Under the pieces are notes generated by a model, which worked only from the letters and a program-made list of their open reading frames with translations, was not told the DNA's origin and searched no databases. From Octopus vulgaris (Eukaryota): a DNA stretch of 64,000 nucleotides. Below are positions 3,360 to 63,896 of this stretch, piece after piece; positions within the stretch are counted from its first letter, which is position 1; every line of letters starts with the position of its first letter. The position numbers and the translations under genes were made by a program. The stretch lies in contig OX597828.1 in NCBI GenBank assembly GCA_951406725.2, positions 930,001 through 994,000 of the forward strand, in the 5' to 3' direction.

Positions 3360-4468
3360 TTAGGTTGTCCGGAAAGTTTGTGCTGATTTTTAAAGGAAAG
3401 AAAAAGGTCAATAAATACTTGCCATTACATTTTTAATCAACTAAATATGAACCATTTTGTTGCATAATCCGTCTCCATCTTTCTTTTAACTTGAAAATAC
3501 CCTCTTCCCAGAACTGAGGTGGTTTCATGGCAAAGAATTCATCAAGGTATCTTTTTACGTCATCCAAAGAATTGAAATTTTTACCATTAAGACTATTCTG
3601 CAGAGACATGAATAAGTAGAAATCCAAAGAAGCAATATCTGGTGAAATTGGAGGGTGGGGTAACACATCCCAGCTGAGCTGCAGCAATTTTTGTCTGGTT
3701 GCCTAAGAAATATGCGGTTGGAAAACAACACCCTTCCTGTTGGTCAATTCTGGACGTTTCTCTTGAATTGCTGTTTTTGACTCGTCCAGTTGTGCTTACT
3801 CCAGGATCACTTTCTCTGAACATTTCGGTAGATAATCCATTTCTCATCACCTGTCACAATTTGCTTTAAAAAAGGCTTGTTTTCATTCCATTTATAAAGT
3901 GAATCACAGATGGAAATGCGATCCAACTCATGTGGTACCCAAACATCGTAGCAATTTGTGTACCCAAGCTTTACCAGGTGCTCATGAACAACGAATTTTG
4001 ATAAGTTGAGGCTTTCTGCCAATTCTCGGGTTGTGCAATGTGGGTTATTCTCAATTAATGACTTGATTTGGTCATCATCTGTAGCGGATGGTCTGCCTGA
4101 TCGCTCTTTATCAATAAGGCTACAATCTCCAGCTTGGAACCTTGCAAACCACTTCCGTACAGTTCTTTTGGATAAAGAAACATCACCGTAAACTGCGCAT
4201 ATTTCTTTGGTTGCTTGTGAGGCATTTTTCCCTTTACAGAAAAAGAAAAGCATCAAGTGCCGAAAATGAACTTTCTTATCTTCCATTTTAAAGGGTTACA
4301 GAATTAACACAGGTTATAGGAACATAAACCTTCTTTGACGAAAAGATAGCTTAAACTGTGCTCTAAATGGAGGTGTAGTCAAATCCTATTTTATGGACTC
4401 AATACTGTTCTAAAATAAGTCGAAAGGTAAGCTACTATAAATCTGCACAAACTTTCCACACAACCCAA
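3360..4468 (-). mobile_element. Mariner element with both TIRs and a disrupted transposase
   Basis: TA-flanked imperfect TIRs (ttaggttgtccggaaagtttgtgc / gcacaaactttccacacaacccaa). ORFs 3807..4286 and 3433..3687 contain the HTH, WVPHEL, TGDEKW and HPPISPDIASLDFYLF motifs; the second catalytic Asp region is deleted. Confidence 0.95.
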
Positions 4469-4515: not shown

Positions 4516-6041
4516 GCCCCTGGAAGCTCCTCTGTGCTGATGACCTTGCTCTAATTGCTGAGTCACTATCAGAACTAGAGGAGAAGTTTCAGGTGTGGAA
4601 ACAAGGATTACAATCGAAGGGCCTAAGAGTCAACCTAGCTAAAACCTGGCTTCCTAATAAGTAGGAAGGCAGACAAACCACAAATCCCTTCAGGTAGATG
4701 GCCCTGCTAAATCTGTAGAAAAGGCATAGGTAGAAACTCTATAAGATGTACCCAGTGTAAGCTATGGACACATAAAAGGTGCAGCAATATCAAAAGAAGG
4801 CTGACTGAGAAGATAGCTTTTATATGTGGCAGATGCTCAGGAGCAATAAACACTGAAAATGTGCAGAGAACAACTTCCGCCACATTCCAGGGAGAAAAAC
4901 TACAAGTCATTGATAGCTTCCATTACCTATGTGACCAAGTCAGTAGCTGGGGTGGATGCTCTGAAAGTGTACCTACTAGAATAAGTATAACCTGGGCAAA
5001 GTTCAGAGAGCTCCCACCTCTGCTGGTGACAAAGGGCCTCTCACTCAGAGTAAAAGGTAGACTGTATGACGCATGTGTATGAATGACCATGCTACATGGC
5101 AGTGAAACATGGGCCGTGACTGCAGAGGACATACATAAACTTGCAAGGAACAAAGCTAGTATGCTCCGATAGATGTGTAATGTCAGTGTGCATACTTGAC
5201 AGAGTGTAAGTACCTTGAGAGAAAAGTTGGACCTAAGAAGCATCAGATGTGGTGTGCAAGAGAGATGACTGTGCTGGTATGGTTATGTGGCGAGAATGGA
5301 TGAGGATAGCTGTGTGAAGAAGTATCACACCCTAGTGGTTGAGGGTACCTGTGGAAAAGGTAGACCTGGGAGAGGTGGTGAAGCATGACCTTTGAACATT
5401 AGGCCTCACCAAGGCAGTGATTAGTGACCGAGACCTTTGGAAATATGCTGTGCTTGAGAAGACCCAGCAAGCTTAAGTGAGACCATAACTCGTGGCCTAT
5501 GCCAGTGGTGTAACCAGCCCACTTATGCGTACTTTTCCTTCATTGGACACTCAACTCTGCTTGCGAAGACCTGTTGAGGCAAGTGAAATCAAAATCAAAT
5601 TCGATGACAGCACTGCATGACTGGCATCCATGCTAGTGGAGCGCTAAGAACACCATCTGAGCATGATTGTTGCCAGGGCCGCTGACTGGCTCCTGTGCCG
5701 GTGGCACGTAAAAAGCACCATCCAAGCGTGATCATTACCAGCATCGCCTTACTGGCACTTGTGCCCGTGGCACAGGAAAAACGTTTGAGCGAGGTCGTTA
5801 CCAGTGCCACTGGACTGGCTCCTGTGCAAGTGGCACATAAAAACACCATTTGAACATTGCCAGTACTGCCTGACTGGCCCTCTCGGAGTGGTTGGCATTA
5901 GGAAGGGCATCTAGCTGTAGAAACTTTGCCAGATCAGATTGGAGCCTGGTGCATCATATGGCTCGCCAGTCCTCAGTGAAACCGTCCAACCCATGCCAGC
6001 ATGGAAAGCGGTCATTAAATGATGATAATGATGATGATGAT
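4516..6041 (+). mobile_element. RTE-clade LINE, 5'-truncated decayed copy
   Basis: Starts at the PWELLYADD-like segment, then PHD-like cysteines, LSLRVKGRLYDACV, a repeat-containing 3' UTR and a (GAT)n tail; several stops. Confidence 0.9.
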
Positions 6042-6045
6042 ATAT

Positions 6046-9000
6046 ACAGGCAAGGAACACAGGTACAAGATTTTCTGGGCAGGGAACACAGACGGGGTTG
6101 GGGGCGTGGGTATACTTCTTGCGGAGAAATGGGTAGATAAGGTAATCGAGGTAGTCAGAGTAAGTGATAGAGTACTTAAGATTAGATTAGTGCTTCACCA
6201 TAGGTCAGCTACCATCATCTCGGCATATGCCCCTCAACCAGGGCTACCGGAAGGACAAAAAGACCAATTCTACGACACCCTATTGCAGACTACCTCGTTG
6301 ACAAATGACAGTGACCTTCTCTTTGTGGCAGGTGATTTCAATGGACATGTTGGACGGCATGTCGGGGGCTTCCATGGCGTTCATGGAGGCTACGGTTTTG
6401 GCTCTCGAAATGAGGAGGGAACCAGGCTGCTGGAGTTCTGCGATGCAAATGACCTTATGGTTTGCAATACCAACTTCAGGAAACCCACCTCTCACCTAGT
6501 CACCTACCGTTCTGGCAGACACACTAGTCAGATTGACTACGTCCTCGCCAGAAAGAGGGAAAGAGGGCTGCTTATAAATGCCAAAACCTTTCCAGGCGAA
6601 GAATGTACTCCTCAACATAGATTAGTAGTTAGCGACATCAGGATCAGAGCTAAATGGTTGCCCAGAAGAAGACCAGCTTGGAGGAGAAGGGTCTGGAAGC
6701 TTAAGGATCCTGCAAATGGACAGAGATTTTGAGACATACTACTCAAAGCCTTTGACGAAATAGAAGGAGATATAGCTTCACTTAATGTGGAAGACAACTG
6801 GAGATTTCTACGGGACAATCTGCTGACAGCCACTGACCAGATCTGTGGATGGAGCAAAGTCCCATCTCGACCCAGAGTAACGTGGTGGTGGAACAAGGTG
6901 GTTGACAGGGCTATTAGACAAAAGAAACAGGCTTGGAGGGAGTGGAAGAACGGTGGTAGCAGGGAATTGTATCAGACAGCCAGAAGGGAAGCTAGGAGAC
7001 AGGTGTATTTAGCCAGAGGGGAAGCGGATAAGAAAAAATTTGCCAATGTTCTGCGCCGTGAGGATGAAAGACTTGAGGTATTTCGTGTTGCAAGACAGTG
7101 TGTGAGAGAGAATCGTGATGTGGTAGGAGAGAAATGTGTCCGCATGGATGATGGTTCACTTGCGCTAAATGAGGATGCAAAGAGAGAGGTTTGGAGATGC
7201 CACTATGAAAGGTTGCTGAATAAAGAAAATGAATGGGATAAAGAGAGTCTGCCAAATGTCAACCCAACAGAGGGACCAGCCATCCAAGTTGACAGTTCCA
7301 AGGTAGTTAAGGCAATTAGAAGCATGAAGACAGGGAAAGCCCCAGGCCCATCAGGAATTACTGCAGAGATGCTCAAAATATCTGGCAGTGTCGGCTATAA
7401 CCTACTCACCCGTATAGTTAACCAGGTGATACACGAAGGGGTCAAACCCAATGACTGGTGTAGCAGCATACTAGTCAACTGTTACAAAGGTAAAGGAGAT
7501 GCCCTAGATACAAATAATTACAGAGGTATCAAGCTGTTGGATCAGGTAATGAAGGTTACAGAGAGGGTCATAGCCCAACTGATTAGGGAGAGAGTCAACT
7601 TTGACGAGATGCAGTTTGGTTTCATGCCAGGGAAAAGCACCACTGATGCCATATTTCTGGTGAGACAGCTGCAGGAGAAATATCTAGCAAAAGATAAGCC
7701 CCTGTACCTGGCTTTCGTTGACATGGAGAAGCCTTTGACAGGGTCCCCCGATCCCTTATCTGGTGGTCAATGAGGAAACTAGGGATAGATGAATGGCTGG
7801 TGAGGGCTGTGCAAGCCATGTACAGGGATGCCGTAAGTAAGGTTAGGGTTGGCAACATGTACACAGAAGAATTCAAAGTAGAGGTTGGGGTCCACCAGGG
7901 TTCAGTACTCAGCCCCCTCCTATTTATCATAGTCCTCCAGGCAATTACGGAGGAATTCAAGACAGGTTGCCCCTGGGAGCTCCTATATGCTGACGACCTT
8001 GCTATAATTGCTGAGTCACTATCAGAACTGGAGGAGAAGTTCCAGGTGTGGAAGGAGGGTCTTGAATCGAGGGGCCTTAGAGTCAACCTAGCTAAAACCA
8101 AAGTACTAATAAGTAGGAAGGTAGAAAATCCACAAATGTCTTCAGGAAGATGGCCCTGCTCGATCTGTAGAAAAGGTGTAGGTAGAAACTCTATAAGATG
8201 TACCCAGTGTAAGCTATGGACACATAAGAGGTGCAGCAATGTCAAAGGAAGGCTAACTGGGAAGATAGTTTTTGTATGTGGCAGATGCTCAGGAGCATTA
8301 ACCTCTGAAATCTGCAGAAAACAACTTCCGTCACTTTCCAGGGGAAAAAACTAGAAGTAGTTGATAGCTTCCGTTATCTTGGTGACCAAGTCAGTAGTGG
8401 GGGTGGGTGTGGTGAAAGTGTAAGAATAGCCTGGGCAAAGTTTAGGGAGCTCTTACCTCTGCTGGTGACTAAAGGCCTCTCGCTCAGAGTAAAAGGCAGA
8501 CTGTATGATGCATGTGTACGAACAGCCATGCTACATGGCAGTGAAACATGGGCCGTGACTGCTGAGGACATACGTAAGCTCGCGAGAAATGAAGCCAGTA
8601 TGCTCCGATGGATGTGTAATGTCAGTTTGCATGCTCGACAGAGCGTTAGTACCCTGAGAGAAATGTTGGACTTAAGGAGCATCAGTTGTGATGTGCAAGA
8701 GAGACAATTGCGCTGGTATGGTCATGTGGCGAGAATGGATGAAGATAGGTGTGTGAAAAAGTGCCAATCCCTAGCAGTGGAGGGAGGGAACCCGTGGAAG
8801 AGGTAGACCCAGGAAAACTTGGGCTGAGGTGGTGAAGCACGACCTTCGAACTTTAGGTCTCACTGAGGAAATGACCTGCGACCGAGACCTTTGGAAATAT
8901 GCTGTGCGTGAAAAGACCAGGCAGGACAAGTGAGTCCAGCCCACTTATGCATGCCTTTCCTCCCTTGGACACACAAAGACCTGTTGAGGCAAGCGAAGTC

Positions 9001-9535
9001 GATATCAAACCTCATCCGACGACAGGCACCTATGCCTACCCCACTTTGCTTGCGAAGACCTGTTGGGGCAAGTGAAATCGAAATCGGAATCGAAATTGAA
9101 CGAATCCTATGACTGGCACCTGGCAGATGCCAGGACCCCTGGACTGGAGATACGTAAAAAGCCCTATCCAAATCGTGGCCGATGCCAGCACCGCCTCGAC
9201 TGGCTTCCGTGTCGGTGGCACGTAAAAAGCACCATCCGAATCGTGGTCAAAGCCAGTGCCGCCTCGACTGGCTTCTGTGCAGGTGGCACGTAAAATGCAC
9301 CAATCCGACCGTGGCCGATGCCAGCCTCGCCTGGCTCCAGTGCAGGTGGCACATAAAAAGCACCCACTACACTCACGGAGTGGTTGGTGTTAGGAAGGGC
9401 ATCCAGCTGTAGAAACATTGCCAGATAAGACCGGAGCCTGGTGCAGCCTTCTGGCTTCCCAGATCCCCGGTTGAGCCATCCAACCCATGCTAGCATGGAG
9501 AACAGACGTTAAACGATGATGATGATGATGATGAT
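6046..9535 (+). mobile_element. RTE-clade LINE, near-complete APE endonuclease + RT + PHD ORF with few lesions
   Basis: APE motifs (SAYAPQ, GDFNGH, SQIDY); RT motifs (KAPGPSG, NYRGIKLL, QFGF, AFVDMEK, GVHQGSVLSP, YADD); C4HC3 finger; one stop at 6730 and frameshifts near 7730 and 8310; (GAT)n tail at 9515-9535. Confidence 0.95.
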
Positions 9536-11367: not shown

Positions 11368-11623
11368 GATGTCCCAGTTGTATCTGATTCACCAAGTGTT
11401 TCAATTTTGTGTATGTACATACATTTACTTGATTGCAAACATTTATTAATGGTTTTTCCCTTTGTGTTGATGTGCCATTTTCTATCATTAACAAAACTGT
11501 CGGCATTTTTTATGACACATGGGTATGTTAGTTTTTTGGTTTTTTGGGGTTTTTTTTTTCTTGTTTCAGCTCAGAGATGGGGCTATGCTGATGCACCACT
11601 GTTATATATATATATAATCAATA

Positions 11624-11778
11624 TCATCATCATCATCATCATCATCATCATTTAGCATCCGTTTTCCATGCTAGCATGGGTTGGACGGTTTAACTGGGGT
11701 CTGTAAAGCCGGAAGGCTTCATCAGGCCCAGTCAGATTTGGCAGTGTTTCTACGGCTGGATGCCCTTCCTAACGCCAA
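11624..11778 (-). mobile_element. RTE 3'-tail fragment
   Basis: (CAT)n followed by the reverse complement of the RTE terminus (ccatgctagcatgg...ggatgcccttcctaacgcc). Confidence 0.85.
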
Positions 11779-11901
11779 TATATATATATATATATAACTA
11801 AACGTCCTCATGTTGTTGTGTTTTCATGTATGGATTAATTATATATATATATATATATAACTAAACAAAATTGTGCTCAGGAAAGGAAAGAAAGAAGGAG
11901 G

Positions 11902-11936
11902 ATTTAACATTTCGAGCGGAGCTCTTCGTCAGAAAC
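11902..11936 (-). ncRNA. Minimal hammerhead ribozyme motif, probably degenerate
   Basis: Minus strand reads gttt-CTGACGA-a-gagc-tcc-gctc-GAAA-T-GTT-aaat; stem I ttt/aaa, very short stem III. Confidence 0.5.
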
Positions 11937-12244
11937 ATAGGAAAAGGAAAGATCCGAGGAAGGGAAGGGACATAGAAATGAGCATGTGTGTGTGTATGCA
12001 GAATACATTTTGTAATATTTGTTGATAATCTGAGATAATTTCCATTGAATTATTGACTGATGAATCAGATAGAAAAGATGAACAATTTGAATAATTTTTT
12101 CTTTAATTCTGTTCAATCTATTCTTGATTTTCTGTTGGATACCACCAAAAAGATGAAATGGGAGCTGACTGCAATGGTGTCACTGATTTTAATGATAACC
12201 CTTTCTACCATAATCACAAAGCCTGACATTTTGGCGGAGAGGAC

Positions 12245-12418
12245 TTGTCGATTCTGTTGACTCCAATGTTTCACTGGTACTTAATTTATCGACCCCCGAA
12301 AGGATGAAAGGTAAAGTTGGCCACGGTGGAATTTGAACTTAGAATGTAGAGACAGATATGAAATGCTGCTAAGCGTTTTGCCCAGCGTGCTAACGATTCT
12401 GCCAGCTCGCTGCCTTAG
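12245..12418 (-). mobile_element. tRNA-derived SINE, second family
   Basis: Minus strand head aggcagcgagctggcagaatcgttagc with a B-box-like agttcaaattcc, then cctttcatcctttcgggggtcgataaattaagtacc. Confidence 0.65.
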
Positions 12419-12586
12419 TGATAATAATGATGATGAGATGGAATTTTAGCTATGTTCAACAGGATTAGTTGAAATACAATGGAAAGAAAAAGGAAGTTGA
12501 TGAGAGGGAAAAAAAAACATGGAGAAAGATGGAGGAGAAGATGAGAATTGTGAAAACAAATATGCTTTAGATGAAATCAATGAAAA

Positions 12587-13279
12587 TCATCTTCTCTTGG
12601 ATCTAATTCCTTTCCTTGGTGAGTTCTCAGGTGTGTTAGTCACTGATGAAATGGATTGGTAATTAAAATAGTTCCACAATTTTGCAAATTCTGAGGAATA
12701 CTTTGTGACAACAGCATAGTCTCTGATGATGGTCAAGTGTTCGTGGTTGACTGTGATTGCATCGGAAGTCCAGTTGAATGAGCCACTACACACGATTTTG
12801 TTGTCGATGATGACAAATTTGTGGTGCATGAGGTATTGTGTTTTATCAGTTCTGACAATTATACCTTGACTACGAAGTTTCCAAATCCACGAGTTGTTCA
12901 CATCTTCATACTCTCCATCAGTAATGAGTCTAATTGCGACTCCCATCGCGTTGAGTTTGATGAGGATGTCGATCAGATCGTGGCAGGAGATGATGTAGAC
13001 ACAGATGTCGATGGACTTCCGAGCTGAACACAACAACTGGAAGAGAAAACTCAGACTCGTCGGAGAACGAGAATAATGACAGGGGAAGCTTGTACAACCG
13101 GACTCGTCGGAAAAATGGGATTTGCAAGCAATTTGCTTATCGGGGAAGAATAGAACTTTGCTGCCAGGGAATCTCTTCCTTGATTTCCGCTTATTTCTCA
13201 CCTGCTTTATTAAATACAGGTAAAATATCGTCCCCGTTAGAACTCCCAAATAGAAAGACGTTGTCACGAACGTTGTCAT
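12587..13279 (-). CDS. PLD6: Mitochondrial cardiolipin hydrolase / Zucchini endonuclease (mitoPLD), single coding exon, about 230 aa
   Basis: Intact ORF: N-terminal hydrophobic anchor (FYLGVLTGTIFYLYLI) followed by a basic stretch, VLFFP, Cys/His zinc-wing region, ARKSIDICVY, and a single HKD motif MHHKFVIIDNKIVCSGSFNWT. Start placed at ATG 13279 (acaacATG); the ORF track extends to 13315 through low-complexity sequence. Confidence 0.93.
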   Translation of the reverse strand: MTTFVTTSFYLGVLTGTIFYLYLIKQVRNKRKSRKRFPGSKVLFFPDKQIACKSHFSDESGCTSFPCHYSRSPTSLSFLFQLLCSARKSIDICVYIISCHDLIDILIKLNAMGVAIRLITDGEYEDVNNSWIWKLRSQGIIVRTDKTQYLMHHKFVIIDNKIVCSGSFNWTSDAITVNHEHLTIIRDYAVVTKYSSEFAKLWNYFNYQSISSVTNTPENSPRKGIRSKRR

Positions 13280-13459
13280 GTTGTGGTGGTGTTTTACATA
13301 CAGATACATATACATATATTACCTATACAGATTTACATATATATGTGTGTGTGTATTAATTATGTAATGAGTATATACATGATGATGTTTGCATTTTAAC
13401 AATGAAAACAGTTGTAGGATTTAAAAAGAATTTATGAAAAATGTATAAAATCTTTACTT

Positions 13460-13465
13460 TTTATT
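13460..13465 (-). promoter_or_regulatory. Candidate AATAAA polyadenylation signal for SPRYD3
   Basis: The only canonical AATAAA I noticed on the minus strand between the SPRYD3 stop and the PLD6 ATG; the region is AT-rich so it may be chance. Confidence 0.3.
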
Positions 13466-14038
13466 ATTCTAAATATGTTGCTCTGAACATTCCTTTTACT
13501 CAATATATTTGCAAACTCATTCCATTTATGATTATTACATTGTAATAATATTATATTATATTATAATAATATTATATTGGAGTTTGGCAACATATTAATA
13601 AGTAAGCTCTTAAATTCAGTAGATATATTTTAGTGCTTAAGCACTAATTCAATATATAAATATTGTTCACACACACACACACACACACATACAGATATGC
13701 ATTTGTTAAAAGAAATCAAAGAGAAAAGAATGCAATACATACTGTACAGTTAATTATAGTTATAATGACAGTGAGAACTCTGGAATTTTCATAGTTGTTT
13801 ACTTTGAGTTTTGTGCTGTCCACTCATGAAAACTATTCATAAGCACCAATGCAAATCTCAGTCGAAACATCTGTGAAAAAATCTTACTCCTTCCACTGTT
13901 GTCATGTATATTTGTGTGTCTGTGTACATACACACACACATATACATGAGAGAGAGACACAAGCATACACACACATGCATACGCATGTACACTCACACAC
14001 ACTCACTCGCTCGCTCACACACACTTTTCTTCTTTTAA

Positions 14039-14173
14039 TTAGCCAGTTAATGGCCGTAAGTCCACTTTTACTTTTTCATCACTGCTCAACATGCCAATAG
14101 TTGGATAGAGACCATCCTTTGAAATTTTCATTTCCCGACTGCCAATTGTACGACCGTTTCTGGTGAAGAAGAC
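14039..14173 (-). CDS. SPRYD3: SPRY domain-containing protein 3, last coding exon
   Basis: VFFTRNGRTIGSREMKISKDGLYPTIGMLSSDEKVKVDLRPLTG* matches the SPRYD3 C-terminus as I recall it; polypyrimidine tract and cag acceptor at 14176-14174, phase 0. Confidence 0.9.
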   Translation of the reverse strand, partial: VFFTRNGRTIGSREMKISKDGLYPTIGMLSSDEKVKVDLRPLTG

Positions 14174-15779
14174 CTGACAAGAAGAAAAGGAATTGAGAAA
14201 TACGTAACTAGAAACAGTTTGCACTTCGAGAGAAAAGAAAAAAGAATGAAAATCTATTTGTAAAAACAGAAAAAGCATGAAAATCATTAAAAAATTTTGA
14301 TCAATAAATTTAATCTGTTTATTCAGAAACAATAAAAATTCTGTTGCAATCAAGCTTGTTCTTTTACTGGTTTTGAACATTGGAGTGTGCCGTAATGCAG
14401 CATTATTTTATTAACTCCAGTACTTGCATTTATTGACTTTGGAAAGAGGAAAAGCAAAGTTGGTTTGGTAGGACTTAAACTTATGTAAACAAATGCCCCA
14501 AAGTATTTCATCTTTAGCTCTACTTGTTCTGCCAACTGCTGTCCACTTCAAACCTGATGTAATGTTTTTGTGGTATGTATGTTCATTGCCTACCTACTAT
14601 GACCAACCACATAGTAGAATATTGATACTATCAGAATCTTAATCTATATTTATTATCTGTTTTTCTTTACTATCATGGGGTAGGCTGAATCTACTGTACA
14701 GTATATTGCTACTACTTTGTTTTCTGCTCTCTCTTCTGTGAGACCAGTACCCAGAGACCTGACTGATCTGACTACTTATGTTTTCCTGTCTGTTTCATCA
14801 CCCATTGGCATTGCATACTTATACTAGCAGAATCAGCTCTCTTGCTCACTTAGATTGTTTCATTTAATACCTAATCACTATCTCAGTTCACTAGTGCTCT
14901 GTCTTTCATGCAGGCAAACATTATATATTCAATGAATCATTTTCATCTCATTTAATCTCCAACCAGCCACTGCAGATCTACCATATTCAATGTCCATGTC
15001 TCACTACCATGCATTATTATGTTTCTTATATAAGTTTCAAAAAGTTTTGCTTTCACAACAGACACCCTATGTTACTAACAATGGAAACACCTTTCTGAAC
15101 AGCTTTTATTTCCGTATTCAAGCTACAGTACTTTTGCTGCAAAAAATTCCTGCACTGATTAGCTCACAATTAGTTTAGATAAATTAACAAATAATTTTGC
15201 TAATAAATTAACAAAGATCAACTCCTAGCATGCACCAACTTCTATTTTCAACTGATTCCTCTCTGCTTCTACTAATAACAACTTTTATGAAACCCCTTCT
15301 ACTCAGGCCAACCCAAACCACATGCCCCTGCTTTTCTGATCACACCATTTATATTTCACATCTCAGGTCTAGCATACACAGTTTCTGCATCCTTCCTCTC
15401 TAGAACTGTTATCTTCTAGAATTTCCATCCTTGGTTATGACCTTTTAACATACAGTAAACTACAGATGTTGAAACTTAATGCAAACTGCATAAAGGCTTG
15501 ATCAACTCTTTAGTGTACCATTCAAGGATGAAGAAAAATTCTGAAATGGAGTTTTGGGTAATGTTGGGGTTACTGCCAGCATTGAGCACGCTATAATTAA
15601 TGCAAGGAAGCCAGTCACTTGGGGTCTCTTTGAGGATTACATGTATATCCACATCGGAAAAGTATATTCCTAGTTAAGTATATGATTGACCTCCAATTTT
15701 GCAACTTTCAGCCAATCTGGTAGAAAGCAATGAGATTTGGTTGTAACTATCTGCACTACTCTGCTATTGCTGTACACTT

Positions 15780-21090: not shown

Positions 21091-22329
21091 TAAAAGAACA
21101 TATGACAATAGCAAAACTCAAAATATATACATGAGATCACTACAACTTTCAATTTGTCTTGTGAGGATTAGTTGGATCCCTACCAGACTTTCTGAGCTTT
21201 GTTTTGTAAACAGAAAAAAAAGCTATTTGCAACACAGGTTTCCACAATCATTACAACAGAGAAACTCACACAGATGTTTCCTGGCATGACCACTGAAATT
21301 GCCACCTATAATAATGATATCTGTGTAATCAATTCTTTTTATAACCAGCACAAGGACTTTAGAAAGTTGGAAGTGTGTGTATGTATGTCTGTGAATGCAT
21401 GTGTGTGTGTGTGCATGCATATGTGTGTGTGTGTGTATGTATCCATGCATATTTACATACGTAAGCAAGCATGCTTGTACACTATGTACTATCAATTGAC
21501 TTTTCAGGAAAAAATATATTTGAATGGTTTCTTGTTGCTCTCTCTCTAGGTATGCATAGAACCTAATAATATAGACCTAAATAAACTGAAATACCCATAA
21601 AAAGATTTAGCTTGAAATGGAACTCTGTTAAAAATTCTAGTGCGACATTTGAAAATGGAAAAACTCATGGTGTTAGAGTTACAATAACTCTTCCAGTTTG
21701 CAACTAAATAATTTGTCTTTAACTCCTTTTCACATAAAAATTGATCCCAATTTATTTTTCCCAACAAGATGTTTATATTTAGAGATTGAAGTTTCAAGGG
21801 TCAACCTCAGTGAGTTCTGATAAAAATTATCTTTCTGACAGTTGTTATTCTGTATCCTTAAAAATTTCATATTCAAACTTTATTTATAAAAAACTTTCTG
21901 ATCTACACTAGTGGGCTGGCAGGGTCCCTTTTTAAAGTTATGCAACTTTTACATTTTTTATCTAAATGATTTTATATCTCATGATTTTTATTGTCAATAG
22001 TTTATGTATGCACACACACACATTTTGAGTTTAGAATTTCCAGTCATATGGACATTATAGCATAAAATATTGTCATTGGGAGCCAACTGGACCCCACTGG
22101 CCTTCTGTGAAATTATTTTTTTCTGTTTTTTTTTCAGACATTCTGATGAACTATAAGTCAATTTTCTTCATATTTGTACTGGTATGAATCGATATACTAA
22201 ATAATTATGTTTTATTTTATATTTAGTGCAATATGTATAGTTCATAAAACTATGAAAAAGTGCTAAATTTCTTGTTCTGTATCATGCACTCAAACATATA
22301 TGAAAATAAAGTTCAGTGGTACTATTTAC

Positions 22330-22502
22330 CCGAACACAAGTTTCTGAATGTTGTTTTTCCCATATCTCGTTGTCTTCAGAACTACTATCACTGAAATCAG
22401 CCAAATCTGTGACATCTTCAGGAGAGTTTGATACAGAGCCCTGACTGTCTAGGTCCACAGTGTAATCCCGAGGAAATGAAATACCACAGCCCATTCGGTC
22501 AC
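22330..22502 (-). CDS. SPRYD3: SPRY domain-containing protein 3, penultimate coding exon
   Basis: (G)DRMGCGISFPRDYTVDLDS...EKQHSETCVR; tttcag acceptor ending at 22503 and GTAAAT donor at 22329; joins in phase 0 to the 14173 exon across an intron of about 8.2 kb. Confidence 0.88.
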
Positions 22503-24539: not shown

Positions 24540-26418
24540 TAGTGCACTACAAGATAGGACCCCTCCTCCAAAAGGATGGCTCCCTCACAGACAGTCCAAC
24601 TATGATCAGTGAGATGCTGAATGACCAGTTCAAAAGTGTCTTTACCACCCTGTTGGAACACAGACAAGTGAACGAACCAGTGGACTTCTTTGCCGCCTCA
24701 CCTATAACCAGCGAGGCAGTTACAATAGAATGTATTGACATTAGCGAAAAAGATGTCCTACTAGCCATAGATGAAGTGGACACAAACTCAGCTGCTGGTC
24801 CAGATGGTTTCCCAGCCATCCTCCTCAAAGCGTGTAAGCATCCCCTGGCAAAATCCCTCCAGATTCTCTTCCAGAGCTTTCTTGCAAATGGCAAACTGCC
24901 AAGCAAGCTGAAGGAGGGAATAATATGCCCAATACATAAAGGGGGAAGTAGAGCAGATGCCAAAAACTATAGGCCTATCTCTCTGACTTCACACATCAGC
25001 AAAGTCATGGAACGGATAGTCAGAAAGAAACTAATTGCATTCCTTGAGGAAAATAACTTGCTGAGTAATACCCAGCATGGTTTTCGACCAGGTAGGAGCT
25101 GCCTGACCCAGCTCTTACAGCAATATGACTGGGTGTTGAGGCAGTTACTCAACAAATCAAATGTGGACGTAATCTACCTTGATTTTGCAAAAGCTTTTGA
25201 CAAAGTGGATCATGGTATGATATGCCACAAACTACGTGACCTCGGCATAGCTGGAAAACTTGGAGTGTGGTTGCATGACTTCCTGAAAGATAGGAGTCAG
25301 GCAGTAGTGGTTAATGGAGCCACCTCTATGAACACACAAATAGTGAGCGGTGTTCCACAGGGCACTGTCTTGGGACCACTACTTTTTATAGTGGCCTTCT
25401 CAGATATGCCCTCAAATGCCCAGATAGTCACTCTGGCAAGCTATGCAGATGATACAAAAGTCTCAAAAAAAAACAGAACCCCAGCGATGTTGCACATCTG
25501 CAGCATGAGTTGGACTCAATTTACAGATGGGCTGAGGATAATAATATGCAGTTTAATGCTGAAAAATTCCAGGCCCTGCGCTACCAGCATCCAAAACTGA
25601 ATATTAAACTTACAGGATACACCGGTCCACAGGGAATTTCAATCCCAGAGCCTGAGTCTGTGAGGGACCTGGGTATGGACATGAGTGATGATACCTCTTT
25701 CCAAGTGCACATTACCAGGATGGCGACAAAGTGCAGACGACTGGCTGGGTGGATCCTATGAACATTCAGAACCAGAGATAAGGAAACCATGATGGTCCTC
25801 TGGCGGACATTCGTCCTCAGTCGCCTGGATTACTGCTCACAGCTATGGTCACCCACCAGTGTAAAATTAACAGCGGACCTTGAAGCAATCCAGAGAAGAT
25901 TCACAAAGAAGATCGTCTCTTTGCAACAGCTCAGCTACTGGGAAAGGTTGAAACAGCTAAGACTCTACACCCTGGAGAGAAGACAGGAGAGGTATGCAGT
26001 AATATATGTCTGGAAGATCCTGGAAGGAATTGTGCCAAATTTTGGCATTGTAAGCTACACCAATGCTAGAAGGGGACGACACTGCATAGTGCCAAAGATC
26101 CCAGCAATGCCATCACGCTTCAGGACCAGCTTCTGCAACAGCCTGGGTTTCAAGGGCCCACAGCTTTTTAATATTCTCCCAAAGAGTCTGAGGAACTTGC
26201 ACAAAGTAGATGTAGCGGTTTTTAAATCAAAGCTGGACATCTTCCTGTCAAGAGTCCCAGATGAACCTACCTCACGGCAAGAGGTGCAAATGAGAGTAGC
26301 TGTATCAAACTCCATTCTTCACCAAGTGCCACATATTAGACGAGGTTTGTCGTAATAACAGTGTAGCACAAAACGGCGGTGCATCAGCATGGCCGCAGCT
26401 CTGAGCTGAAACTAGAAA
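24540..26418 (+). mobile_element. CR1-like LINE, 5'-truncated, RT nearly intact
   Basis: AAGPDG, NYRPISLTS, QHGFRPGRSC, YLDFAKAFD, SGVPQGTVLGP, YADDTK, DYCSQLWSP; one frameshift near 25470 and one stop at 25759. Confidence 0.93.
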
Positions 26419-32544: not shown

Positions 32545-32562
32545 TATATAATATATATATAT

Positions 32563-33335
32563 CATCATCATCATCATTTAGCATCCGTTTTCCATGCTAG
32601 CATGGGTTGGACGGTTCAACTGGGGTCTGTGAAGCAGGAAGGCTTCATCAGGCCCAGTCAGATGTGGCAGTGTTTCTACGGCTGGATGCCCTTCCTAACG
32701 CCAACCACTCCGTGAGTGTAGTGGGTGCTTTTTACGTGCCACCCGCACAGGTGCCAGACAGAACTAGCAAACGACCACGAACGGATGGTGCTTTTACATG
32801 TCACTGGCACGGGGGCCAGGCGAGGCTGGCAAAGGACACAAACGGATGGTGCTTTTACGTGCCACCAACACGGGGCCCAGACAGAGCTGGCAAACGGCCA
32901 CAAAACGGATGGTGCTTTTACATGTCACCGGCATGGGGGCCAGGCGAGGCTGGCAACGGACACGAACGGATGGTGCTTTTACATGCCACCAACACGGGGG
33001 CCAGACAGGGCTGGCAAACAGCCACGAACGAATGGTGCTTTTACGTGTCACTGGCACGGGGGCTAGACAGAGCTGCCAAATGGCCACAAACGGATGTTGC
33101 TTTTACGTGTCACCTGCACGGGGGCCAACTGATGCTGGCAACGGACGCGAACGGATGGTGATTTTACGTGCCACCGACACGGAAGCTAGACGGGGCGGCA
33201 CTGGCAATGACCACGATCGGATGGTTCGCTTAACCACAGCTGCAATTCCCACTGATGTTGATCGACCTCAATTTGGTTCTGTTTTCTGATACATGAATTG
33301 ATTTCGCTTGATTTTCATTTTCACTGTTCGCACTG
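32563..33335 (-). mobile_element. RTE 3' UTR fragment with about 8 tandem 57-60 bp units
   Basis: Unit ggtgcttttacgtgccacc...ggggccag...ctggcaa...cgaacggat repeated at 32724-33225 next to the RTE terminus. Confidence 0.85.
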
Positions 33336-35619: not shown

Positions 35620-37328
<1,709 letters not shown>

Positions 37329-37337
37329 CATATATAT

Positions 37338-37600
37338 CATCATCATCATCATCATCATCATCGTTTAACGTCCGCTTTCCGCGCTAGCACGGGTTGGACG
37401 GTTTGACCGGGTCTGGGAAGCCAGGGGCCGCACCAGGCTCCAGTCTGAATCTGGCAGAGTTTCTACGGCTGGATGCCCTTCCTAACGCCAACCACTCCGT
37501 GAGTGGATTGGGTGCTTTTTACGTGCCACCTGCACAGGGGCCGGAGGGTCCGGCATCGTCACGATCGGTTCGAGCATTTTAACGTGTCAGCGGCACGGGG
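37338..37600 (-). mobile_element. RTE-type 3' tail (variant subfamily) terminating the GC-rich body and monomer array
   Basis: (CAT)n plus the reverse RTE terminus, continuous with 37600-38466. Confidence 0.85.
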
Positions 37601-37605
37601 GCAAC

Positions 37606-38466
37606 GAGGTCCGGGGTACTTTGGGGATCGGGGTACTTTGGGGATCCAGGGTACTTTGGGGATCCGGGGTACTTAGAATGGGTAGGGGGTATGTGGAATT
37701 GCTGCAGAAAGCAGCCCGGGTCTTTGTAGTCACAGCATTTATCGTCACTGAGTAACGTAATTAGGTAGAGGAAAGAAATACAGATATTCTAGAGTTGAGT
37801 TGGGGAGGGGGGTCCAGTTGAGGCGGGTAATATAGGGAGCAACCAGTGGGGAAGGTTGGGGTAAGGAGGAACGATGGCAGGAAGGGTTGGTGTAGGTTCC
37901 TAAGAAATAAAGACATTCGTTATCGTCACTGAGTAACGTTATTAGGTAGAGGAAAGAAATACAGATATTCTAGAGTTGAGTTGGGGAGGGGGGTCCAGTT
38001 GAGGCGGGTAATATAGGGGAGCAACCAGTGGGGAAGGTTGGGGTAAGGAGGAACGATGGCAGGAAGGGTTGGTGTAGGTTCCTAAGAAATAAAAACGTAG
38101 GATATTACGAGGCGGGAGGGTACTAAAGGGGATGGTCGGAATGAGGCAGTGTCAGGAGGAAGCGTAAGATCGGTGGGCAGTTGATGAGCTATGGCGCTAG
38201 CAGCTTGTCTTTTCACAGTGAAAGCATATGAGGAGAAGGGGTAGTGGGGGGAGGAGGAGGGAGTAGGGCGTACCCGGTGTAGATGAGTAAGGCGTATCCG
38301 GTGTAGATGGTGAGAACAGGGTATACTGGTATTGGTGGTGGGGGGTGAGAACAGTGTTCACCGGTATTGGTGGTGGTGGCGGTGAGAACAGTGTTCACCG
38401 GTATTGGTGGTGGGGGTGAGAACAGTGTTCATCGGTATTGGTGGTGGGGGTGGGGGGGCGGGCGCA
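37606..38466. repeat. G-rich segment with nested direct repeats (about 18 bp x4, 183 bp x2, 30-36 bp x4)
   Basis: ggtactttggggatcc repeats at 37606-37675; duplication 37740-37921 / 37922-38095; ggtgagaacagtgttcaccggtattggtggtgg repeats at 38308-38450. Confidence 0.85.
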
Positions 38467-41400
38467 CCGCCAATGGCTGAAAGATGGGAAGAGATGGGAT
38501 TACGGCTTGAGGTAGCCTAAGGTTAAATTTTGTAGAGAGAGAGATAGGAAAGATAAATCAAGTTATGGCGAAGGCTTGAAAGTAGCCTAAAAGGTTAAAT
38601 TTTCGTAACAATGTATGAATAAACGTAGTAACAACGAATAAAAATAGTAAGATAAATTTTTAAGAACTTGCTGCGGGCATCGATCGGGAGTTGAAATTGA
38701 AGAAGAAAGTAAGTTGAATTGGGAATTTAAATTGCAGAATCGTAATGGTAATGGCGATTTTCAAGTTTTAGCATAAGAAGAAGAAGAGGAGGAAAAAGAC
38801 CGCCAATGGCGGAAAGATGGGAAGAGATGGGATTACGGCTTGAGGTAGCCTAAGGTTAAATTTTGTAGAGAGAGAGATAGGAAAGATAAATCAAGTTATG
38901 GCGAAGGCTTGAAAGTAGCCTAAAAGGTTAAATTTTCGTAACAATGTATGAATAAACGTAGTAACAACGAATAAAAATAGTAAGATAAATTTTTAAGAAC
39001 TTGCTGCGGGCATCGATCGGGAGTTGAAATTGAAGAAGAAAGTAAGTTGAATTGGGAATTTAAATTGCAGAATCGTAATGGTAATGGCGATTTTCAAGTT
39101 TTAGCATAAGAAGAAGAAGAGGAGGAAAAAGACCGCCAATGGCGGAAAGATGGGAAGAGATGGGATTACGGCTTGAGGTAGCCTAAGGTTAAATTTTGTA
39201 GAGAGAGAGATAGGAAAGATAAATCAAGTTATGGCGAAGGCTTGAAAGTAGCCTAAAAGGTTAAATTTTCGTAACAATGTATGAATAAACGTAGTAACAA
39301 CGAATAAAAATAGTAAGATAAATTTTTAAGAACTTGCTGCGGGCATCGATCGGGAGTTGAAATTGAAGAAGAAAGTAAGTTGAATTGGGAATTTAAATTG
39401 CAGAATCGTAATGGTAATGGCGATTTTCAAGTTTTAGCATAAGAAGAAGAAGAGGAGGAAAAAGACCGCCAATGGCGGAAAGATGGGAAGAGATGGGATT
39501 ACGGCTTGAGGTAGCCTAAGGTTAAATTTTGTAGAGAGAGAGATAGGAAAGATAAATCAAGTTATGGCGAAGGCTTGAAAGTAGCCTAAAAGGTTAAATT
39601 TTCGTAACAATGTATGAATAAACGTAGTAACAACGAATAAAAATAGTAAGATAAATTTTTAAGAACTTGCTGCGGGCATCGATCGGGAGTTGAAATTGAA
39701 GAAGAAAGTTTGAATTGGGAATTTAAATTGCAGAATCGTAATGGTAATGGCGATTTTCAAGTTTTAGCATAAGAAGAAGAAGAGGAGGAAAAAGACCGCC
39801 AATGGCGGAAAGATGGGAAGAGATGAGGTTATCCTAAGGTTAAATTTTGTAGAGAGAGAGATAGGAAAGATAAATCAAGTTATGGCGAAGGCTTGAAAGT
39901 AGCCTAAAAGGTTAAATTTTCGTAACAATGTATGAATAAACGTAGTAACAACGAATAAAAATAGTAAGATAAATTTTTAAGAACTTGCTGCGGGCATCGA
40001 TCGGGAGTTGAAATTGAAGAAGAAAGTAAGTTGAATTGGGAATTTAAATTGCAGAATCGTAATGGTAATGGCGATTTTCAAGTTTTAGCATAAGAAGAAG
40101 AAGAGGAGGAAAAAGACCGCCAATGGCGGAAAGATGGGAAGTGAGGTAGCCTAAGGTTAAATTTTGTAGAGAGAGAGATAGGAAAGATAAATCAAGTTAT
40201 GGCGAAGGCTTGAAAGTAGCCTAAAAGGTTAAATTTTCGTAACAATGTATGAATAAACGTAGTAACAACGAATAAAAATAGTAAGATAAATTTTTAAGAA
40301 CTTGCTGCGGGCATCGATCGGGAGTTGAAATTGAAGAAGAAAGTAAGTTGAATTGGGAATTTAAATTGCAGAATCGTAATGGTAATGGCGATTTTCAAGT
40401 TTTAGCATAAGAAGAAGAAGAGGAGGAAAAAGACCGCCAATGGCGGATGGGAAGAGATGGGAAGTGAGGTAGCCTAAGGTTAAATTTTGTAGAGAGAGAG
40501 ATAGGAAAGATAAATCAAGTTATGGCGAAGGCTTGAAAGTAGCCTAAAAGGTTAAATTTTCGTAACAATGTATGAATAAACGTAGTAACAACGAATAAAA
40601 ATAGTAAGATAAATTTTTAAGAACTTGCTGCGGGCATCGATCGGGAGTTGAAATTGAAGAAGAAAGTAAGTTGAATTGGGAATTTAAATTGCAGAATCGT
40701 AATGGTAATGGCGATTTTCAAGTTTTAGCATAAGAAGAAGAAGAGGAGGAAAAAGACCGCCAATGGCGGAAAGAGATGGGAAGTGAGGTAGCCTAAGGTT
40801 AAATTTTGTAGAGAGAGAGATAGGAAAGATAAATCAAGTTATGGCGAAGGCTTGAAAGTAGCCTAAAAGGTTAAATTTTCGTAACAATGTATGAATAAAC
40901 GTAGTAACAACGAATAAAAATAGTAAGATAAATTTTTAAGAACTTGCTGCGGGCATCGATCGGGAGTTGAAATTGAAGAAGAAAGTAAGTTGAATTGGGA
41001 ATTTAAATTGCAGAATCGTAATGGTAATGGCGATTTTCAAGTTTTAGCATAAGAAGAAGAAGAGGAGGAAAAAGACCGCCAATGGCGGAAAGATGGGAAG
41101 TGAGGTAGCCTAAGGTTAAATTTTGTAGAGAGAGAGATAGGAAAGATAAATCAAGTTATGGCGAAGGCTTGAAAGTAGCCTAAAAGGTTAAATTTTCGTA
41201 ACAATGTATGAATAAACGTAGTAACAACGAATAAAAATAGTAAGATAAATTTTTAAGAACTTGCTGCGGGCATCGATCGGGAGTTGAAATTGAAGAAGAA
41301 AGTAAGTTGAATTGGGAATTTAAATTGCAGAATCGTAATGGTAATGGCGATTTTCAAGTTTTAGCATAAGAAGAAGAAGAGGAGGAAAAAGACCGCCAAT

Positions 41401-42259
41401 GGCGGAAAGATGGGAAGTGAGGTAGCCTAAGGTTAAATTTTGTAGAGAGAGAGATAGGAAAGATAAATCAAGTTATGGCGAAGGCTTGAAAGTAGCCTAA
41501 AAGGTTAAACTTTCGTAACAATGTATGAATAAACGTAGTAACAACGAATAAAAATAGTAAGATAAATTTTTAAGAACTTCCTGCGGGAATCGATCGGGAG
41601 ATGAAATTGAAGAAGAAAGTAAGTTGAATTGGGAATTTAAATTGCAGAATCGTAATGGTAATGGCGATTTTCAAGTTTTAGCATAAGAAGAAGAAGAGGA
41701 GGAAAAAGACCGCCAATGGCGGAAAGATGGGAAGTGAGGTAGCCTAAGGTTAAATTTTGTAGAGAGAGAGATAGGAAAGATAAATCAAGTTATGGCGAAG
41801 GCTTGAAAGTAGCCTAAAAGGTTAAATTTTCGTAACAATGTATGAATAAACGTAGTAACAACGAATAAAAATAGTAAGATAAATTTTTAAGAACTTGCTG
41901 CGGGCATCGATCGGGAGTTGAAATTGAAGAAGAAAGTAAGTTGAATTGGGAATTTAAATTGCAGAATCGTAATGGTAATGGCGATTTTCAAGTTTTAGCA
42001 TAAGAAGAAGAAGAGGAGGAAAAAGACCGCCAATGGCGGAAAGATGGGAAGTGAGGTAGCCTAAGGTTAAATTTTGTAGAGAGAGAGATAGGAAAGATAA
42101 ATCAAGTTATGGCGAAGGCTTGAAAGTAGCCTAAAAGGTTAAATTTTCGTAACAATGTATGAATAAACGTAGTAACAACGAATAAAAATAGTAAGATAAA
42201 TTTTTAAGAACTTGCTGCGGGCATCGATCGGGAGTTGAAATTGAAGAAGAAAGTAAGTT
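38467..42259. repeat. Tandem array of 317-333 bp monomers, 11 full copies and one partial
   Basis: ccgccaatggc recurs at about 38467, 38800, 39133, 39466, 39796, 40117, 40434, 40757, 41076, 41393, 41710 and 42027; units are nearly identical with a purine-rich + strand. Confidence 0.97.
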
Positions 42260-58889: not shown

Positions 58890-59425
58890 CGGAAAGTTCG
58901 TGAGGAACCCATTGACCCAATTTGCTGACTTTTCCGATAGCACACAGGTCTCAATGAATGGTTGAATGACCAAATCCAAGCTTCTCTGCTAGTTCCTCAA
59001 CAGTTACGATGAGATTTTGTTCCACCAGGGTTTTCAGGATGTCCTTGTCGAGTTCTACAGATCTTTCAGGATGAGGCTCGTCTTCTAGGCTGTAGTTTAT
59101 GGCTCGGAATTTCTGGAACCACCATTGACACTGCCTTACGCTTATTGTCCAATCCCCATATACTGCATTAATATTTCTTGTACTTTCCGTTGCGTTGTTG
59201 TCTTTATTGAACTCATAAAGCAAAATATGCCAAATATGCTCCTTTGTTACTTCCAACATAGCTTTGAAAAAAATAGCTGTTAAAATCGAAATGCACTCTT
59301 CAAAACTTGCACTATGAATAAGGACAAGATAAAATTACTACCTGCTTTTATAGCAAGTTAATATAAGTAGTTTATCCCATTCCCCTCTGACTTTTAGTTC
59401 AAGCTGTTGAAAAAACCGCATTATT
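58890..59425 (-). mobile_element. Mariner element 5' half, decayed
   Basis: ORF 58951..59259: KEHIWHILLYEFNK...INAVYGD...CQWWFQKFR...SLEDEPHPER (HTH domains). Confidence 0.85.
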
Positions 59426-63052: not shown

Positions 63053-63896
63053 CTAGCAGAATTGCCCGGCATTGCTCGGGGCTGAATTGCTTGAAAGTAC
63101 TGTTAATGATTGCACTGAATTATGATGATTATTCAGGCAAATATTGAAATAAGCTTACGGTGGGAGATAAGGACTTAACGCCAAACGTGTGCCATTGCAT
63201 TGTTTTGGGGGAACCAAATTTCTGATGAGCATTATAGGGGCACTAACTTTAAGTTTGAGAAAGTGTGGTGGTAGTCCGGGGTGCTCAAAGGAATTGAGTA
63301 CCTCTATTGGATAGTTGATGACGTCCTCTGGGTCAGGAGTTGTATCGATAGACTGATATACATCGACTTCCCCAGGAATGAGTTTTAGCATTTCATCATT
63401 AATATGGTGAACAGTTTTATTCCTCGGGGCCAGTATAGCCTTTTTGCCAATCCAATCCATATTCTGATAATTAGCTTGTAAATCTGGGAACACTGCATCT
63501 CTGAGATCAGAAGGCGTCTTAACAATGGTACAAATGGAATCGATGGCAATATTACCATTTTCATCCCCTGGTATTTTGCCTTCGCCAAGTGCAAGGAGGG
63601 TGTGAGGAAATGCTGGTGATGTGATATTACGTCGCATATGAGCACGCATATTGGTGTGAAGTTTGAGAGTTACTTCCGTTTATTTTAAAAAATATGCATT
63701 AAAATGGAAAAAAATGATGGTAAATTATTTGTAAAATCATAGACTCATCGTAGACGCGCGCTAATACCCAGAAGGGCTCGATATGAATCACGACTATAAG
63801 ATACCCGGTTTTGGTTAAACTGCATCGCAAAATGTGGGAGTAGTTAGGAATCTAAATCGGAGTAGACAGACACACAACCTTTCTTTAATATATAAA
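63053..63896 (-). mobile_element. Helitron deletion derivative carrying a Pif1-family helicase fragment (about 63155-63670)
   Basis: LKLHTNMRA...LLALGEG...KAILAPRN...IN...YPIEVLNS...GLPPHFLKLKVSAPIMLIRNL...CNGTRL between a family A 5' region and a hairpin+CTAG end. Confidence 0.92.

Follow-up and report, generated by a model that had tools for sequence, protein, structure and literature searches.

An intron-less PLD6/Zucchini copy with a LINE tail lies downstream of SPRYD3 in Octopus vulgaris

SPRYD3 and the neighbouring PLD6 open reading frame

The DNA analysed here, referred to below as the window, is a stretch of 64,000 nt of Octopus vulgaris (assembly GCA_951406725.2, contig OX597828.1, positions 930,001-994,000, read on the forward strand). 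Its minus strand carries the 3' end of SPRYD3, followed by an open reading frame for PLD6/Zucchini. SPRYD3 is a multi-exon gene that occupies about 160 kb of C15, and the window holds its final two exons only, the remaining ones being found outside it at C15:1,036,391-1,103,548. The following features are present in this part of the window:

22330..22502, minus strand: penultimate coding exon of SPRYD3 (tblastn with SPRYD3 proteins; splice sites read directly, with a phase-0 donor at 22329)
14039..14173, minus strand: last coding exon of SPRYD3, including the TAA stop codon at 14041-14039 (protein matches, tblastn and run contigs)
13440..14038, minus strand: 3' UTR of SPRYD3 (contigs over 13706-14174 and 13473-13537; the end near 13440 is predicted from the AATAAA)
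13460..13465, minus strand: AATAAA, predicted poly(A) signal of SPRYD3 and the sole one in the spacer, 186 nt before the PLD6 ATG
12587..13279, minus strand: PLD6/Zucchini open reading frame of 230 amino acids, single exon, HxKxxxxD motif intact (Pfam, PDB match, homologue alignment)
13067..13069, minus strand: codon 71 of this frame, His changed to Arg

The last SPRYD3 exon gave 21 protein matches, of which those that are named are SPRY-domain proteins, mostly SPRYD3. Contigs of runs X1, X5 and X7 cover 13706-14174 and continue outside the window, as expected for spliced transcripts. Those over the distal part of the UTR end at 13473 (X2) and 13485 (X17), near the AATAAA, but these ends are not counted as evidence for the transcript end, because no DNA contig extending past them was observed. 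The original prediction had described an intact single-exon PLD6 frame starting 759 nt after the SPRYD3 stop on the same strand, behind a SPRYD3 intron of about 8 kb; all of its coordinates hold, and the intron (22329-14174) measures 8,156 nt. Equally accurate was its picture of an AT-rich spacer with one AATAAA about 180 nt ahead of the PLD6 ATG (13279) and without a recognisable transposon: the spacer has a GC content of 29%, contains microsatellites only, and gave no blastn match (low-complexity filter on) to the rest of the window or to seven 10-kb loci.

Upstream of the penultimate exon, positions 22503-64000 fall wholly in one 84-kb SPRYD3 intron. This intron holds two stretches of a second LINE type that bears a reverse transcriptase (24602-26355 and 35691-37020) and a frame at 63155-63649 that we take to be helicase-like. 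A strong strand asymmetry extends over 4-5 kb at 37500-42000 (GC skew about 0.5, AT skew about 0.24), which likely reflects a tandem repeat within the intron. Two further frames, at 58951-59259 and 3807-4286, are presumably mariner-like.

The assignment of the frame at 13279-12587 to PLD6/Zucchini is borne out by its match to Pfam PLDc_2 (E 9.5e-29) and by its best PDB match, 4ggj, described as 'mitochondrial cardiolipin hydrolase' (E 1.7e-31). The residues of its single HxKxxxxD...GSxN motif (H152, K154, D159 and G166-N169) are invariant in 27 of 27 sequences, and residues 7-25 at the N-terminus are hydrophobic, nearly identical to those of orthologues in the homologue alignment, and anchor-like. 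The protein thus has in common with Zucchini/PLD6/MitoPLD (PDB 4ggj, 4gel) a hydrophobic N-terminus, a single HKD motif and three conserved cysteines (C52, C62 and C67), whereas in the window copy Arg takes the place of the conserved histidine in the Cys-Cys-Cys-His wing. This residue, H71, is His in all 26 other homologues, and its counterpart in 4ggj is the histidine of CPCSLPH. We take His71 to be the wing histidine with the zinc role.

The window PLD6 as a processed copy of a two-exon C2 gene

A search of the genome with the PLD6 frame returned five matches, namely the frame itself, two exons of a parent gene on C2, and, with 42-46% identity, two exons of an older C2 paralogue. Alignment to the parent delimits the following features:

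11623..13295, minus strand: whole processed PLD6 copy, consisting of about 16 nt of 5' UTR, the coding sequence, the 3' UTR and a LINE tail (aligned to both parent exons; 5' edge within a few bases)
13296..13360, no strand: TA/TATG microsatellite that borders the insertion on its 5' side, containing the proposed AG acceptor and in-frame upstream ATGs at 13315 and 13309
12864..12865, minus strand: exon-exon junction from which the parental intron is gone (parent/copy alignment)
11779..12586, minus strand: 3' UTR derived from the parent, containing short repeat remnants at about 12247-12430 and 11790-11960 (alignment to parent)

The parent is 96% identical to the window copy in exon 1 and 92-93% in exon 2. 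Its GT..AG intron of 3,291 nt, in phase 1, is exactly absent from the window copy. Homology is confined to the transcript, beginning about 16 nt ahead of the ATG and reaching 11623; the copy has thus carried along about 960 nt of the parental 3' UTR, while the DNA upstream of the parent, including two CCGGAA-type motifs, is absent. The window PLD6 is therefore, with near certainty, a retrocopy of the C2 gene. The original prediction had offered a retrocopy as a fallback, which the exact intron loss vindicates; new with respect to it are the extent of the inserted unit, down to 11623, and the two-exon parent on C2.

An assembly artefact or a DNA-level duplication appears extremely improbable. 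The genome is repeat-rich and both junctions of the copy lie within microsatellites, as such an origin might predict, but the exact loss of the intron, 24 differences between the two coding sequences and flanks that are unrelated argue against it. So does run X15, whose DNA shows, over window positions 12809-12962, an intron-less path alongside an intron-bearing one with loose ends that fit the intron ends.

The intron is ancestral, since the older paralogue has one at the same position. This paralogue (C2:10,141,471-10,150,878, plus strand) lies 134 kb from the parent, is 41-48% identical and keeps both Cys-Cys-Cys-His and HKD. Octopus carries two ancestral Zucchini-like genes, and the working octopus PLD6 gene is likely the C2 parent. 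For annotation, the PLD6 on C15 should not be taken as the orthologue or as a member of an operon-like pair.

The main proposal of the original prediction, a bicistronic, read-through or alternatively spliced SPRYD3-PLD6 unit, finds no support in these data, and that such a unit has evolved here seems highly improbable. Like eukaryotic bicistronic and read-through transcripts, the two frames are closely spaced (759 nt) on one strand, and an intervening transposon is not recognisable. However, the insertion is young, and the spacer places between the frames the AATAAA and 26 ATGs, six of them past the AATAAA and two of these six in frame with PLD6. The adjacency that was to be looked for in relatives is not conserved: annotated PLD6 and SPRYD3 genes lie on different scaffolds in three of three octopods (PLD6/SPRYD3 scaffolds, in Mb: O. 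bimaculoides 192.5/58.2; O. sinensis 207.9/59.5; Argonauta 57.3/32.0), a comparison of annotated genes by scaffold that gives indirect evidence and would miss unannotated copies. An AG is indeed present where an acceptor had been suggested (13324-13323), but joining it to the phase-0 SPRYD3 donor leads into frame +1 relative to PLD6, and within 13280-13460 the sole AG that is in frame runs directly into a stop codon. A weaker point against a joint unit is that none of 14 longer PLD6-like proteins contains a SPRY domain; no literature pairing SPRYD3 with PLD6 was found in a search weighted towards open-access texts. No run contig bridges the two genes, although contigs cannot show absence; positions of about 13291-13430 are without contig cover, though part of them was skipped as repeat. 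Some read-through may nevertheless reach the copy at a low level, for instance in gonad.

The LINE tail and the proposed route of insertion

The 3' end of the processed copy consists of a LINE fragment, and a broken LINE with the same tail is found elsewhere in the window:

11623..11778, minus strand: 5'-truncated LINE 3' end inherited from the parental UTR and ending in (GAT)9 (alignment to parent and to LINE copies in the window)
6019..9535, plus strand: broken LINE with endonuclease, reverse transcriptase (RT), PHD finger, a 3' region of about 950 nt and a GAT tail (Pfam Exo_endo_phos_2, RVT_1 and PHD)

In the parent the LINE fragment is 155 nt long, lies in sense orientation about 800 nt after the stop, and shares with the window copy its 5' truncation point and diagnostic letters. 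The fragment is 81-97% identical to 11 other copies in the window. Because the tail trails the C-terminal RT motif in four of four motif matches (by 902-1,029 nt, plus strand), it represents the 3' end of this LINE. By resemblance, we take the family at 6019..9535 to belong likely to the RTE clade; the ESM Atlas returned no clade for it. RTE families are described as recently active in O. vulgaris in two reports (PMC13282606; PMC9115989). The LINE 3' end at 32561-32704 (minus strand), 97% identical to the tail fragment of the copy, belongs to the same young subfamily, and upstream of it lies a tandem minisatellite (about 32740-33190).

A DNA search with the unique part of the UTR revealed a third locus, at C27:28,997,784-28,996,806 (minus strand), and the junction of UTR and LINE, searched as a pattern (control 0), occurs at exactly three loci in the genome: the C2 parent, C15 and C27. 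The C27 copy is 5'-truncated and retains the last 12 nt of the coding sequence; it spans the UTR and finishes at the same LINE tail. It has an exact target-site duplication of 25 bp, situated in a TA microsatellite and beginning right after the last GAT. This copy does not span the intron position, and its RNA origin rests on the tail, the truncation and the duplication. It also has letters in common with contigs of X1, X16 and X17 that are absent from the C15 copy and from the parent of the assembly; judged from these letters, the C15 and C27 insertions are therefore likely two events from different donor haplotypes.

At the 3' end of the window copy no poly(A) tract is present; the number of GAT units is five in the parent, seven in the C27 copy and nine in the C15 copy. 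The first AATAAA of the parent is found 1,128 nt after the stop and the tail motif earlier, at +944, so that priming on poly(A) would have copied further. Across about 134 kb surveyed, a TA repeat comes after 9 of 23 tails, or 7 of 21 once the copy and the parent are set aside, compared with a background of 7.6%.

From these patterns it is very probable that a LINE reverse transcriptase recognised the LINE tail within the PLD6 mRNA. The proposed route starts from the sense LINE fragment in the parental 3' UTR, through which a spliced PLD6 transcript extended, as the copy itself documents. The LINE protein would then bind the tail and prime on (GAT)n at a nick in TA-rich DNA, a step supported by the two copies ending at the tail, their longer GAT runs, the missing poly(A), and the duplication and truncation on C27. 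At C15 the product retained the full coding sequence and none of the parental upstream DNA, and a few million years of drift would have followed, during which His71 was replaced and the function of the protein presumably lost. Chance would suffice for a landing about 150 nt past the predicted SPRYD3 poly(A) site, because the tails favour TA repeats and the C15 flanks are TA-rich. Three observations count against such tail-driven priming. The C15 copy has no clean target-site duplication, only degenerate TA-repeat matches; a CCAUG/CAUGG hairpin appears in four of four tail folds, yet is no stabler than in shuffles (z -0.3 to 1.5); and two ATTAAA signals precede the tail in the parent.

The missing C15 duplication would also be compatible with retroposition of the ordinary poly(A) type (L1/Tx1-like) or with a cDNA captured by repair, the ending at the tail then being a coincidence or the result of internal priming on a TA run. 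In favour of this explanation, TA repeats lie behind the tail in the parent and in the copies, and L1-Tx1 families have been recently active in O. vulgaris (PMC13282606). We nonetheless regard it as quite improbable: each of the two copies stops at the tail, has a longer GAT run than the parent and carries no A tract, and the C27 duplication starts directly after the last GAT.

The tail-driven route has relatives among known systems. In SVA 5' transduction, a transcript begun at a host promoter reads through an embedded element and carries along spliced upstream exons, and mobilisation uses L1 and poly(A); the octopus element differs in being a LINE remnant of 155 nt within a 3' UTR. Processed retrocopies made by L1 (PMC5470649; PMC5131818) resemble the octopus copies in exact intron loss, a retained 3' UTR, a lost promoter and a dispersed site, and the C27 sister copy also in its 5' truncation with a target-site duplication. 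In contrast to them, the octopus copies are without poly(A), both end at the LINE (GAT)n within the UTR, and they stop about 170 nt short of the first parental AATAAA. SINEs that depend on stringent LINE tails, such as platypus snoRTE/PlatSINE1 (PMC7245038) and RTE-tailed SINEs (PMC6007223), likewise join host RNA to a LINE 3' end and are moved by the LINE; they also share the repeat tail and a target joined via A/T microhomology. Differently from these SINEs, what is carried in octopus is a spliced mRNA that includes a complete protein-coding sequence, present as two copies rather than a family and devoid of an internal promoter.

Recognition of the tail by its cognate protein has been demonstrated for zebrafish L2 (PMC4176376), and for RTE elements base-pairing between the repeat tail and its target has been discussed (PMC6007223); a duplication flanked by RTE in Schistosoma is DNA-level and thus a different route (PMC3434034). 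According to reviews, LINEs that recognise their own tail restrict which host RNAs become retroposed (PMC5470649), and the drivers of retroposition outside mammals were largely unidentified (PMC5131818). That both insertions of this mRNA end at a LINE tail embedded in it suggests a simple way past the limit set by tail specificity, with the prediction that octopus retrocopies derive from genes whose 3' UTRs carry LINE tails in sense orientation. Note also that the cargo is a nuclease of the piRNA pathway, duplicated by elements that it is expected to silence. No title or abstract on a tail-driven mRNA retrocopy in octopus was found in an open-access-weighted search of article texts, though supplementary retrocopy lists may bear on this.

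Possible constraint and probable decay of the C15 copy

Parent and copy differ by 14 synonymous and 10 non-synonymous changes, giving a dN/dS of 0.185, which is not proof of function because changes on the parent branch and between alleles are mixed in. Branches were assigned by hand from the run contig tables (all rows but four), and the 30 differences of X17 were reconciled with its counts. With two sites shared with X2 excluded, the copy branch received 6 synonymous and 7 non-synonymous changes and the parent branch 7 and 2 (Fisher P 0.20). Six synonymous among 13 changes on the copy branch is marginal (P 0.04-0.12). Five of the seven non-synonymous ones fall in the variable C-terminal tail, and His71Arg is the sole one in the nuclease core, where 4 synonymous changes stand against 1 non-synonymous (neutral P 0.008-0.021). 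Amino-acid changes on the copy branch amount to 7 per 542 sites (1.3%), similar to the UTR rate; private UTR changes number 19/942 in the copy and 5/942 in the parent (1.3-2.0% versus 0.5%). After 13 changes, a frame free of stops is expected by chance with a probability of 0.52-0.63, counting substitutions only. At a rate of 0.0036 per million years, the value given in PMC13282606, the copy would be roughly 4-6 million years old, which is a loose figure.

Expression can be viewed through contigs from 7 of 24 listed runs, which are of unspecified tissue and none of which is on record as RNA. These contigs show spliced SPRYD3 and spliced PLD6 of the parent type. Every PLD6 contig of X1, X5, X7 and X2 (presumed RNA) and of X17 (RNA or DNA) agrees with the parent at all 12 copy-private sites, but this is not evidence of silence, because contigs drop rare variants and the animals may lack the insertion. 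The intron-less path of X15 and X16 (one study) has four letters of its own relative to the window, all four synonymous, and is without the window-private letter at 12929; its source may be this insertion, a different one, or a parental allele that has no intron.

A retrocopy of the same origin could instead have become a functional young retrogene, transcribed by read-through beyond the SPRYD3 poly(A) signal or from a local start, perhaps in the germ line, and encoding a mitochondria-anchored protein with an altered zinc wing. The intact frame with its anchor-like N-terminus and HKD motif, the pairwise dN/dS, the 4:1 ratio in the core, the position on the strand of an expressed gene, and the intron-less path in X15/X16 would all fit such a fate. 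The intact frame, the dN/dS, the core ratio and the synonymous X15/X16 letters are, however, hints that could reflect either constraint or inherited allele differences; synonymous letters may be donor-allele variants, since parent-type contigs differ mutually at many sites. Furthermore, the lone core change strikes His71, an open frame would survive by chance about half the time, the excess of synonymous changes is marginal, and the parental promoter DNA was not copied. We therefore consider a functional retrogene unlikely and decay of the copy, on balance, probable. The combined account, in which a retrocopy of the C2 gene, likely primed on its LINE tail, landed likely by chance past the SPRYD3 poly(A) signal and is probably decaying, appears to us quite likely as a whole.

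A broader combination, which we likewise regard as unlikely, is that LINE tails in octopus 3' UTRs act as export tags through which a LINE specific for that tail copies entire host mRNAs and generates retrogenes independently of poly(A), Zucchini being duplicated repeatedly and the copy beside SPRYD3 being expressed by read-through and partly constrained. The Zucchini duplications would then comprise the two insertions and a further intron-less form in other animals.

Two minor observations concern the PLD6 3' UTR. Seven clustered changes at 12418-12432, at the edge of a short repeat, are present in the window copy and absent from the parent and from C27, and possibly result from conversion by another repeat copy. 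In addition, two divergent haplotype classes of this UTR, 93% identical over 276 nt, are seen among the window (11965-12586), the C27 copy and runs X1, X16 and X17; X1 shows both classes, whereas over 469 nt of the SPRYD3 UTR there are 0-3 differences.
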